A DNA stretch of 36,544 nt from Verrucomicrobiota bacterium (GCA_049522055.1 JBEKOF010000009.1:1-36544); one strand, 5' to 3'; counted from the first letter of the stretch, positions 8,667-11,667 are shown. Numbers and translations are program-made. Notes: generated from the sequence alone by a model not told the origin.

Positions 8667-9929
8667 TCAATCGCCTTCCTGGCGCTCGACGCGGGCGCCG
8701 AGCTTGCGCAGTTTTTCGTCAATTTTCTCATAGCCGCGATCAATGTGATAGACGCGGCTGATCTGGGTGACTCCCCGGGCCACCAGGCCCGCGATGATCA
8801 GCGCCGCCGAGGCCCGCAAATCGCTGGCCATGACTTGCGCCCCGCTCAGGGGCCGCCCGCCTTTGACGATGGCGCTGGGACCTTCGATGGCGATGTCCGC
8901 GCCCAACCGGGCCAGTTCGCTGACGTGCATGAAACGGGACTCGAAAATGCGCTCGGTAATGATGCTGATGCCCGGGGTCATGGCCATGAGCACCATCATT
9001 TGCGCCTGCACATCGGTGGGAAACCCGGCGTAGGGAAGCGTGGTGATGTCCACCGGCTTCAACCGCCCGCGGCGGGAAATCTTCAGCGCAGGGCCGACGC
9101 GCTCCACGTTCACCCCGGCGTCGCGCAGTTTGTCCAGCACGGCGCGCAGATGGTCGGGGCGCGCGCCGAGGATGGTGACCTCGCCCTGGCTGGCAGCGGC
9201 GGCCACGGCGAAGGTGGCCGCCTCAATGCGGTCGGGGATGACTTCGTGTTCCGCGCCGTGGAGACTTTTCACGCCGGTGATGGCCAGGGTGGGACCGCCC
9301 GCGCCGGAGACCTTGGCGCCCATGGCGTTGAGGAAATTGGCCAGGTCAACGACTTCCGGTTCGCAGGCGGCGCTTTCGATGAGGGTCATGCCGTCGGCCA
9401 AAACGGCGGCCATCATGACGTTGGCGGTGCCCAGCACGGTCGGGCCGCAGCGGCCGCCGAGGAACACCTCGGCGCCCTTTAATTTTTTCACGCGGGCGTG
9501 GATGTAGCCGCCGTCAATTGTAATTTTTGTCCCCAGCGCCTCCAGCCCCTTGAGGTGGAGGTCAATGGGGCGCGCGCCAATGACGCAACCGCCGGGCAAG
9601 GAGACGACCGCCTCGCCGCGCCGGCCCAGAAGCGGCCCCAGGATACAGACCGAGCCGCGCATTTTGCGAATCAGATCGTAATCGCCCACGCCCTTGACGC
9701 GGGCGGCGCGCACGGTGAGGGCGCCGCCCTGGAACTTCACTTCGGCCCCGAGCGAGGCGAGGATTCGGCCCATGAACTCCACGTCGCTCAATTGGGGGAC
9801 GCGCCGGATGACGCACGGCTCGCCGGTGAGCAGGGTGGCGGCCATGATGGGGAGCACGGCGTTTTTCGCGCCGCTGATGGCGACTTCGCCGCGCAACGGC
9901 GTTCCGCCTTTGATGAGAAAGCTGTCCAT
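8667..9929 (-). CDS. murA: UDP-N-acetylglucosamine 1-carboxyvinyltransferase
   Basis: 420 aa. MDSFLIKGGTPLRGEVAISGAKNAVLPIMAATLL... matches the EPSP-synthase-fold MurA family along its full length. Confidence 0.95.
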   Translation of the reverse strand: MDSFLIKGGTPLRGEVAISGAKNAVLPIMAATLLTGEPCVIRRVPQLSDVEFMGRILASLGAEVKFQGGALTVRAARVKGVGDYDLIRKMRGSVCILGPLLGRRGEAVVSLPGGCVIGARPIDLHLKGLEALGTKITIDGGYIHARVKKLKGAEVFLGGRCGPTVLGTANVMMAAVLADGMTLIESAACEPEVVDLANFLNAMGAKVSGAGGPTLAITGVKSLHGAEHEVIPDRIEAATFAVAAAASQGEVTILGARPDHLRAVLDKLRDAGVNVERVGPALKISRRGRLKPVDITTLPYAGFPTDVQAQMMVLMAMTPGISIITERIFESRFMHVSELARLGADIAIEGPSAIVKGGRPLSGAQVMASDLRASAALIIAGLVARGVTQISRVYHIDRGYEKIDEKLRKLGARVERQEGD

Positions 9930-9960
9930 AATAAAAACCTGTTTCCCGCCGGGCGCGCCC

Positions 9961-10818
9961 TCAACCGGCCTGCCGGCGCGCGATCAAAATTCTTGGACGC
10001 TGATTGTAATCGGGTTCCACCGGTTCGACAATCCAGTTTTGCCGCCGGAAAATTTCCGCCGCCGCCGCATGGCTCTCCTCGTCCAACTCCAGCATGAGGC
10101 GTCCGTCCGGTTCCAGAAAAAGGCCCGATTCGGCGGCGATGCGCCGGTAAAAATCCAAGCCGTCGGCGCCGCCGTCAAGGGCCTGGCGCGGCTCATGGTC
10201 GCGCACTTCCGGGTCCAGCGTCTGGATCCGCTCCGTCGGGATGTAGGGTGGATTGGAGACGATGAGCCGAAAACGCAGCGAGGGCGGCACGGCGGCGAAA
10301 AGGTCGCCGTGATAAAACCGGATGGCGGCGTGATGGCGGGCGGCGTTTTCGCGCGCCAGCGCCAGCGCGTCGGCGGAGGCGTCGCTGGCGTGAATGGCCG
10401 CCCGCGGGACGTTGACGGCCAGGGCGATGGCCAGGCAGCCGCTGCCGGTGCCCAGGTCCAGGGCCGCGGCGGATTGGTCAGGGGGGGATGCCTTGAGGAA
10501 TATCCAGGCGCGTTCGGCCAGCAACTCCGTTTCCGGGCGGGGCACAAGGACGTGGGGATTGACGGCTAATTCCAGCGCGCAAAATGGAGCGGAGCCAACG
10601 ATGTACTGGAGCGGCTCCCGGTTGCCCCGGCGCTGGACCAGGGCGCGCACGGCGTCCAATTCTTCCTGGGTGAGGCTGCGCTCGAAATTCAAATATAGCT
10701 TCATGCGGGGCATTCGCAAAGCATGGGCCAGCAGACTTTCCACCTGGAGCCGTGGAGAGAGGACCGCCTTTTTGGCCAGAAAATCCGCCCCGCGTTGAAT
10801 CACTTCAAGAATGGTCAC
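9961..10818 (-). CDS. prmC: release factor glutamine N5-methyltransferase (HemK/PrmC)
   Basis: 285 aa with the SAM motif LDLGTGSGCLAIALA and the NPPY catalytic motif (LIVSNPPYIP). It sits immediately upstream of murA on the same strand. Confidence 0.9.
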   Translation of the reverse strand: MTILEVIQRGADFLAKKAVLSPRLQVESLLAHALRMPRMKLYLNFERSLTQEELDAVRALVQRRGNREPLQYIVGSAPFCALELAVNPHVLVPRPETELLAERAWIFLKASPPDQSAAALDLGTGSGCLAIALAVNVPRAAIHASDASADALALARENAARHHAAIRFYHGDLFAAVPPSLRFRLIVSNPPYIPTERIQTLDPEVRDHEPRQALDGGADGLDFYRRIAAESGLFLEPDGRLMLELDEESHAAAAEIFRRQNWIVEPVEPDYNQRPRILIARRQAG

Positions 10819-10908
10819 GGGGTTAAAAATAGGTTTAAACGGCCAAGTTCAAAGCGCAAAATGGCGCTTCCGTATCCGGTTCGTCACCAGATTGTTGCGA
10901 TGGGTCGC

Positions 10909-10937
10909 TTGACAAAGTTTGGGGATGGGCTATAAAT
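10909..10937 (+). promoter_or_regulatory. sigma70-like promoter (TTGACA, 16-17 nt spacer, TATAAA/ATAAAT)
   Basis: ttgaca at 10909-10914 and tataaa at 10931-10936 in an AT-rich intergenic island. The predicted transcription start is near 10943. Confidence 0.5.
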
Positions 10938-10942
10938 AACAG

Positions 10943-11116
10943 CGTAAATGAATAAAGCATTTGCAGTCCAGACCAGTCTGTGCGCGCATCGCTCCGGTGG
11001 AGCGATTCCGATGTGGCGCGCCTGTCGGACTGCTGGCAACGTGGATAGTGTTTTCTAAGGAAAAACAACAATTTCAAGAACCCACGATGGCCAGTCAATC
11101 GTGGGTTTTTCGTTTT
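10943..11116 (+). ncRNA. candidate small RNA or structured 5' leader of about 170 nt, bounded by a promoter and an intrinsic terminator. Class unknown.
   Basis: No credible ORF: the 63-aa ORF 10961..11152 reads straight through the terminator. There is an internal 8-bp hairpin (atcgctcc ggt ggagcgat, 10988-11006) and a terminal intrinsic terminator. I could not match it to any known RNA family by eye. Confidence 0.3.
11081..11116 (+). terminator. Rho-independent terminator (8-bp GC-rich stem, 9-nt loop, T-tract)
   Basis: cccacgat ggccagtca atcgtggg followed by tttttcgtttt. Confidence 0.55.
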
Positions 11117-11148
11117 ATACGACCGCAATGCAACAATTTTGAAATAAT

Positions 11149-11496
11149 ATGAAGAAAAAGAATCAAGTAGCGACGTGGTTCCAGCCGGATACCCGGTTCG
11201 AAATCACGCCCCTGCTCCCCGTGCCCTTTCGCGGCACGCAGGAAACGGAACTGGATCGTCTCAAGGCCCGGCTTTTGAAGCAGTTGCTCGACCAAACGGA
11301 GGATCCGCAGTTTTATGCGCCCTTGCGCCGCGCCGCCAATGAAGCGGCCGCGCTGGCCTGGTTTACGCCTTTCCCGCTCCTATTCTTCCCGGCCTTGCTG
11401 GAGGAGAAGGCGCGCGCGGCGCGGCAGCAAGGAGCCCGGCAGCGCTGCATCCGGCTTCGCAGCCAGAATCTGTTGGAGAATGCGGTGGAGGCGTGA
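11149..11496 (+). CDS. hypothetical protein
   Basis: 115-aa ORF starting 33 nt after the terminator. No family recognised and no obvious Shine-Dalgarno sequence. Confidence 0.35.
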   Translation: MKKKNQVATWFQPDTRFEITPLLPVPFRGTQETELDRLKARLLKQLLDQTEDPQFYAPLRRAANEAAALAWFTPFPLLFFPALLEEKARAARQQGARQRCIRLRSQNLLENAVEA

Positions 11497-11667
11497 TTGA
11501 AAACTTGTGCATGGAGTGGGGAACCCTCTGGCGCAGCCCTGGAGGCCTCCGGGGCTGCGCCGATTTGGGGGTCAGGATCTAATCCATCCGGCTAATGTGG
11601 CGAATGTGGTTGACCGCTCCGACGCGATGCCTAGTTTTGTCGGGTGGGTTACCAAACCAATCCATGG

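Follow-up and report, generated by a model that had tools for sequence, protein, structure and literature searches.

A probable ribosome-dependent transcription attenuator with a near-leaderless leader ORF upstream of a conserved 115-aa protein gene in Verrucomicrobiota

Ribosome-mediated attenuation of transcription is a textbook mechanism of gene control in Proteobacteria and Firmicutes. In the Proteobacterial attenuators trpL, hisL, pheL, thrL, leuL and ilvL a short ORF lies close to the promoter, and in the trpL/hisL type the leader RNA forms mutually exclusive hairpins between regions 1 and 2, 2 and 3, and 3 and 4, ends in an intrinsic terminator, and has its region 2 masked by the ribosome that has reached the stop codon; in E. 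coli trpL this stop codon sits between regions 1 and 2. Another arrangement is known for secM-secA, mifM-yidC2 and vemP-secDF2, in which an arrest peptide governs the initiation of translation downstream and not an intrinsic terminator. As for Verrucomicrobiota, a phylum abundant in soil and peat and known mostly through metagenomes, almost nothing is known, to our knowledge, about cis-regulatory RNAs. Ribosome-mediated attenuators that respond to stalling or to antibiotics have been reported for msrD/msrDL (PMC10314930), vmlR (PMC9226507) and yxjB (PMC6851288), and uORF attenuators have been predicted genome-wide by PASIFIC (PMC5314783). Our literature search for a leader-peptide attenuator in Verrucomicrobiota found no relevant report.

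The element studied here lies in a window, by which we mean the whole stretch of DNA analysed, 36,544 nucleotides long, from the GC-rich genome of a Verrucomicrobiota bacterium whose relatives are Verrucomicrobiota MAGs of Limisphaerales, Pedosphaera and subdivision 3 groups. The features used throughout the text are the following.

9961-10818, - strand: prmC, with PrmC_N and MTS domains, divergent from the 115-aa gene, the element lying between the two
10909-10914, + strand: -35 hexamer TTGACA, read directly from the sequence
10931-10936, + strand: -10 hexamer TATAAA, separated from the -35 hexamer by a 16-nt spacer, read directly
10948-11058, + strand: leader ORF of 36 codons plus TAA, MNKAFAVQTSLCAHRSGGAIPMWRACRTAGNVDSVF, with an ATG start, conserved in relatives
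10963-11033, + strand: central structured domain inside the ORF, from MFE folds
10963-10969 with 11027-11033, + strand: helix P1, GCAGUCC with GGACUGC, from MFE folds
10982-10987 with 11016-11021, + strand: outer stem, GCGCGC with GCGCGC, from MFE folds
10988-11006, + strand: inner 8-bp hairpin, ATCGCTCC (10988-10995) with GGAGCGAT (10999-11006), from MFE folds
11033-11044, + strand: region 2, CUGGCAACGUGG (codons A-G-N-V), which forms the antiterminator's 5' strand, from pairing and covariation
11050-11066, + strand: stop-codon hairpin GUUUUC-UAAG-GAAAAAC, from folds, enclosed by the antiterminator helix
11079-11116, + strand: intrinsic terminator (regions 3 and 4), paired and with compensatory changes in relatives
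11149-11496, + strand: 115-aa gene, the proposed regulated gene, directly 3' of the element

We consider this element to be, with good probability, an attenuator of the ribosome-dependent (leader-peptide) kind acting on transcription of the 115-aa gene, and as such it is a new family in the known class of ribosome-dependent transcription attenuators. With the Proteobacterial attenuators it shares the short promoter-proximal ORF, and with the trpL/hisL type the exclusive 1:2, 2:3 and 3:4 hairpins, the intrinsic terminator and the placement of the stop codon, from which a ribosome would mask region 2. It differs from this type in that regulatory codons do not occur in runs in the peptide, the ORF would be near-leaderless and has no Shine-Dalgarno sequence, and the target is one gene and no biosynthetic operon, in the phylum Verrucomicrobiota; moreover, unlike in E. 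coli trpL, the ORF crosses region 2 and stops 12 nt past the GUG. With msrD, vmlR and yxjB it has in common that a uORF lacking codon runs precedes a terminator/antiterminator and one dedicated downstream gene, and that the position of the ribosome on the uORF is proposed to set the state. This likeness is meant as one of architecture, not of a response to antibiotics or of a known resistance or translation factor as the target, and the uORF of the element is longer (32-39 codons) and highly structured, with no arrest motif recognised. In the same way, the uORF resembles those of secM-secA, mifM-yidC2 and vemP-secDF2 in occurring only 5' of one conserved gene whose expression would be set by translation status, whereas it would work through an intrinsic terminator, and no arrest motif or export signal is evident in its leader peptide.

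Regarding the boundaries of the element, the original prediction had placed a promoter, a textbook terminator and an internal 8-bp hairpin in a structured segment of about 170 nt within a locally AT-rich island, and all of these were borne out. The promoter consists of TTGACA, a 16-nt spacer and TATAAA; the 36.5-kb window has a single match to TTGACA-N16-18-TATAA where chance would give 0.01, and TTGAC is kept 39-46 nt 5' of the leader ATG in most related loci. The GC content is 0.46-0.53 across the element versus 0.6-0.7 in the flanks, and the element, of which the window holds one copy, folds with -64.4 kcal/mol, better than shuffled sequences (z = -3.3), with the 8-bp hairpin at 10988-11006. 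Judged by its sequence, the promoter is of the sigma-70 type, and its spacing would place the start of transcription at about 10942-10945 and would give a leader 5' UTR of only about 3-6 nt, or about 3-10 nt at the widest. No Shine-Dalgarno sequence is present before the leader ATG, and initiation of the ORF would need a leaderless-like mode, which is the weakest point of the attenuator model; in the window, a predicted hairpin GUAAAUG/CAUUUGC can sequester the leader AUG. A generic promoter/terminator scanner called neither the promoter nor the terminator of the element, the former because it demands T at the last -10 position, and the latter because its loop limit is 8 nt and the loop was counted as 9 nt.

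The terminator is the most conserved part of the locus. Its stem is formed by AACCCACGAT (11079-11088) and ATCGTGGGTT (11098-11107) and is followed by the T tract TTTTTCGTTTT, which runs to 11116 and leaves 32 nt up to the start codon of the 115-aa gene, an ATG at 11149; transcription of this gene therefore almost certainly passes through the terminator. The hairpin has 10-14 bp; in the alignment of 72 sequences it is 99.9% paired, with compensatory changes in 5-6 pairs, and its sequence is almost unchanged even where the identity of the 115-aa protein is only about 50%. At least 120 metagenome contigs carry the exact terminator pattern. When RNAalifold was run for the whole family on a MAFFT alignment, the terminator alone was recovered, because the central region was not structurally aligned, and lineage-wise folds were used instead.

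The terminator, and with it the element, is closely bound to the 115-aa gene. In the 80 genome loci, which were fetched by that gene, the element lies directly 5' of it, the nearly invariant hairpin being present in 79; among the metagenome matches listed, 119 of 120 instances have on their own strand a 115-aa homologue that starts within 200 nt downstream, and the lone exception has just 243 nt of sequence past the terminator match. It had been suggested that the element might control both the 115-aa gene and the transporter downstream. The first half of this suggestion stands and the second does not: the CitMHS_2 ("NhaD-like") transporter is next in only 28 of the 80 loci and a convergent murA is next in other loci, and the conserved unit is therefore made of promoter, leader, terminator and 115-aa gene.

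This placement bears on the idea that the locus encodes an independent, trans-acting sRNA of about 170 nt which ends at the terminator, the downstream gene having its own expression signals. A structured segment bracketed by a promoter and a terminator fits this idea, and terminated attenuator transcripts can act in trans elsewhere, as rnTrpL of Sinorhizobium does (PMC7298713); terminated leader transcripts could exist at the present locus too. An independent sRNA gene is nevertheless neither needed nor supported, since the promoter and the terminator are there but the position is tied to the 115-aa gene: the element is never found away from this gene (119/120 among the matches listed), and the 32 nt between the T tract and the ATG leave no room for a separate promoter. 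In addition, the conserved ORF and the antiterminator described below indicate a role in cis, and no candidate seed region or target was identified. We regard such an sRNA as extremely improbable.

The segment had also been described as containing no plausible ORF, and this part of the original prediction has to be corrected, as the 36-codon ATG ORF at 10948-11058 is conserved in relatives. An ORF occupies this position in 72 of the 79 hairpin-bearing genome loci, with 32-39 codons and an end 19-31 nt before the hairpin, and in 106 of 107 metagenome loci with sufficient upstream sequence (among the matches listed), where it encodes 103 distinct peptides; overall, it is present in 178 of 186 related loci. 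As a control, an ORF of the leader type was found in 9 of 107 dinucleotide shuffles and in 8 of 107 reverse complements, that is about 8%. The leader ORFs are 93-144 nt long and fall into at least eight length classes, in each of which start and stop stay put, so that indels preserve the leader frame. At 72 loci the stop codon is TAA in 47, TGA in 20 and TAG in 5, and internal stops occur in frame +1 at all 72 loci and in frame +2 at 42 of them. Differences at codon positions 1, 2 and 3 number 942, 1019 and 1326, the third position being the most variable, and the synonymous share of codon differences is 24% in frame versus 14% and 19% in the shifted frames. From these patterns we infer that the leader ORF is translated, and the signature is one in which the act of translation appears to count more than the sequence of the peptide.

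A few loci depart from this picture in single features. In L067 (about 2750-2860) the leader starts with GTG, not ATG, with frame and length unchanged; the leader of L050 is frameshifted near its end, and that of L039 is truncated. These anomalies could be due to natural decay or to assembly errors.

The peptide itself is poorly conserved in an alignment of 73 leader peptides. Codon 2 is usually AAA or AAU (Lys or Asn) and position 5 is hydrophobic; a single Trp is found in 56 of the 73 peptides and is absent from about 20% of leaders, and the conserved Trp codon overlaps a stem. Runs of any one residue are absent from the 73-peptide alignment, nor do these peptides have the tandem or clustered regulatory codons by which an amino-acid-sensing attenuator is recognised. 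Trp, Thr, Cys and Arg were each considered as the sensed signal and rejected as an established one, none of them being consistently clustered. The classic logic of starvation sensing thus has no obvious input, because the peptide lacks a regulatory run of amino acids.

A conserved ORF may alternatively mean that a functional small protein is made from its own promoter in front of a leaky terminator, with the 115-aa gene happening to be next and no switch at all. The conservation of the ORF, the residue class kept despite codon change at the hydrophobic position 5 and at the Lys/Asn position 2, and the strength of the terminator agree with this explanation. However, the peptide is weakly constrained, as seen from the synonymous share of 24% and from 103 distinct peptides at 106 loci, and it has no match in Pfam, NCBIfam or PADLOC. 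The constraint on region 2 argues against a small protein as well. The best-conserved stretch outside the terminator is GGCANCGUGG at the 3' end of the ORF, where the window has CUGGCAACGUGG. In 162 of 165 distinct sequences the Gly codon is GGC, and the third codon is GUG in 131 and GCG in 34, which covers all 165, while the middle codon varies freely among AUC, AAC, GUC, AGC and others (Ile, Asn, Val, Ser). With synonymous sites of Gly and Val frozen and the residue between them free, region 2 is therefore conserved as RNA and not as peptide. Furthermore, the antiterminator covaries with the terminator, and a plain terminator would need no such thing. That the ORF simply encodes a small protein is in our view very unlikely.

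The pairing partner of region 2 is the terminator. The consensus GGC-NNC-GYG complements the 5' half of the terminator and part of its loop (CCCRCGAUUGCC), and in the window CUGGC pairs with GCCAG at 11090-11094 and CGUGG (11040-11044) with CCACG at 11082-11086. In the alignment, 89-93% of cells are paired in the antiterminator, a share that falls to 29-39% if the partner is shifted by 1-3 columns. The single variable core pair between regions 2 and 3 is U-A in 43, U-G in 88, C-G in 34 and C-A in none of 165 distinct sequences, and a further antiterminator pair is U-A in 26 and G-C in 11; as the sequences are phylogenetically related, these covariation counts overstate the number of independent events. 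In L022 and L044, altered terminator loops are matched by changes in region 2. Terminator and antiterminator are hence two mutually exclusive structures, each of them conserved and covarying in the comparison of related loci, and the near-invariance of region 3 is accounted for by its two pairing partners, regions 2 and 4. In 160 of 165 distinct sequences the stop follows GGC at a distance of exactly 7 codons, and due to this fixed spacing a terminating ribosome would cover region 2 (CGUGG). Hairpins analogous to the stop-codon hairpin of the window are seen in the folds of relatives. The locus thereby contains the parts that define an attenuator, namely a leader ORF, a terminator before the gene, and an antiterminator strand within reach of the ribosome.

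Region 2 has a second partner upstream. Region 1, which comprises codons 3-6 of the ORF with the segment CCACGUU, or in one clade GAUGCCG including the start codon, pairs with region 2 in most lineages as an anti-antiterminator. The energy of the 1:2 duplex lies between -10 and -17 kcal/mol; 29 of 72 sequences have a z below -1.64, and in 36 of 72 the helix is part of the MFE structure of the pre-terminator transcript. The helix is 72.6% paired over all lineages, and RNAalifold on 30 sequences predicted this long-range helix independently, with 5 compensatory changes. In the clade of the window the pairing is weak (z = -1.4 in the window and about 0 in close relatives), and it is partly replaced there by a local CCGG...CCGG hairpin or by CCAG (10968-10971) with CUGG (11033-11036). 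As for the central domain, a hairpin is found at the equivalent place in all lineages with differing stem sequences; its pair 56-63, for example, is CG in 12, AU in 11, GU in 4 and UG in 2. No conserved unpaired nucleotides were found in the central domain in the 72-sequence alignment, in which the invariant or near-invariant columns are all in region 2, the stop-codon region and the terminator.

These results allow us to weigh a terminator/antiterminator riboregulator that is run by a ligand or an RNA-binding protein, with the ORF being incidental or auxiliary. The 115-aa protein could itself be such a regulator and act on its own leader, in the manner of ribosomal-protein leaders or of antitermination of the RAT/BglG type; the leader is tied exclusively to one gene, which is typical of autoregulation, the terminator stem and loop are near-invariant beyond the needs of a plain terminator, and the model of the 115-aa protein suggests a basic C-terminal helix. 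On the other hand, an incidental ORF would not persist at 98% of loci versus 8% in shuffles, nor would it hold its stop exactly 7 codons past the GGC of region 2. Moreover, the central domain lacks aptamer-like conserved unpaired nucleotides, no Rfam family matches, and the 115-aa protein has no RNA-binding fold recognisable by PDB profile or Foldseek. A riboregulator of this kind is therefore judged unlikely. A riboswitch as such is not supported, there being neither conserved unpaired aptamer nucleotides nor an Rfam match. Of the forms first envisaged for the element, an sRNA or a cis-acting leader of riboswitch or attenuator type, it is thus the cis-leader in its attenuator form that is favoured, by the exclusive covarying helices, and the riboswitch and the independent sRNA are not.

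It had been stated earlier that no known riboswitch or 6S/SRP/tmRNA signature could be recognised. Rfam 15 was run on the whole window and on 14 diverse relatives, and no family reached its gathering score. Under permissive settings, 10780-11260 gave only His_leader, TEG147 and AgvB, all of them sub-threshold matches driven by the terminator. The best of them, His_leader (RF00514), reached 23.1 bits against a cut-off of 49 (E = 0.14), and since its score comes mostly from the terminator it is a hint at the architecture, not evidence of membership.

The energetics of the window RNA are compatible with a switch between the two structures. When the transcript is cut at 11097, before region 4, the antiterminator fold is adopted with -54.1 kcal/mol, while in the full-length RNA the terminator is preferred (-62.3 versus -54.1 kcal/mol). 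With a stop-codon ribosome's footprint masked, the window RNA folded into the terminator conformer, whereas the untranslated nascent window RNA folds as antiterminator, which is unlike the behaviour of the trp type. The proposed attenuator would follow a ribosome-masking logic. Transcription from the promoter would yield a short 5' UTR followed by the 36-codon ORF that ends in region 2, and region 3 would pair with region 2 to form the antiterminator or else with region 4 to form the terminator. An undelayed ribosome at the stop codon would cover region 2, so that the terminator forms, RNA synthesis breaks off at about 11110-11116, and the 115-aa gene is silent. A ribosome delayed or stalled 5' of region 2 while region 3 is made would leave the antiterminator to form, with readthrough and the 115-aa gene on. 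With no ribosome, lineages with a strong 1:2 helix would terminate too, and the default in the clade of the window is uncertain. What slows the ribosome might be a limiting aminoacyl-tRNA, translation stress or antibiotics; further candidates are the efficiency of near-leaderless initiation and feedback from the 115-aa protein.

The last of these candidates can be extended to the idea that the leader ORF is a feedback sensor, or "monitoring substrate", for the 115-aa protein, which would then be an unrecognised translation-associated factor. Ribosome dwell time on the structured, near-leaderless uORF would then show whether the factor is in sufficient supply, and the factor might act in near-leaderless initiation, in elongation across structured mRNA, or in termination and recycling. 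The one-to-one linkage, the lack of regulatory codons, the fixed stop geometry and the adjacency of prmC are compatible with this idea, which we offer as a speculation that is rather unlikely to be right in this form.

Independently of what the signal may be, the proposed attenuator has some practical meaning. The element is widespread, with 1258 protein clusters at 50% identity in the downstream family and about 190 leaders examined, yet it is absent from Rfam and departs from the usual codon-run logic. It offers a switch that can be mutated in order to study near-leaderless initiation and the coupling of transcription and translation in Verrucomicrobiota, and as an attenuator it would mark the conserved 115-aa protein as tightly regulated, which is a lead to its role. 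For annotation, a leader ORF, of 36 codons in the window, and an attenuator are to be added 5' of the genes of the 115-aa family.

As for this family, it had 700 matches in a database clustered at 90% identity, and an exhaustive HMM search gave the 1258 clusters named above and no informative fusions, every member standing alone and measuring about 110-120 aa; in database members of 146-179 aa the start has probably been called wrongly, too far upstream. The 115-aa protein had no match in Pfam, NCBIfam, the PDB sequence profile, Foldseek versus PDB, or PADLOC. The AF2 model (pLDDT 83) predicts a disordered N-terminus and three helices, and the N-terminus of the family carries a conserved PFRGxxE motif. 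The 115-aa genes of relatives have GGA-rich ribosome-binding sites, most of them with GAAAGGAAAC before the ATG; the gene in the window is without a clear Shine-Dalgarno sequence (11130-11151, UUUUGAAAUAAUAUG).

Some observations were also made on the neighbourhood. The prmC-murA pair (8667-10818 in the window) stays beside the 115-aa gene in differing arrangements, lying divergently upstream in the window and in L008 and convergently downstream in another clade; the adjacency is seen in L031, L046-L049, L053, L060, L061, L065 and L074-L076. With prmC being the gene of the release-factor methyltransferase, this adjacency may reflect simple synteny or else a functional tie to the termination of translation. 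The locus was also met in MAGs labelled Saccharimonadales, Limnocylindria, Baltobacteraceae, Bifidobacteriaceae, Acidoferrum, Dongiaceae, Binatia or Angelobacter (L018, L019, L029, L031, L035, L042, L052, L057, L069, L072 and L077), and these non-Verrucomicrobial labels probably stem from errors of binning or taxonomy in the public records. Downstream of the 115-aa gene, 34 nt past its stop codon and before the CitMHS_2 transporter gene, the window has at 11530-11571 a GC-rich hairpin of 15 bp, GGCGCAGCCCUGGAG with CUCCGGGGCUGCGCC, followed by GAUUUGGGGG. This hairpin may be a terminator, and if it is, the 115-aa gene would be monocistronic and the transporter would lie outside the control of the leader.
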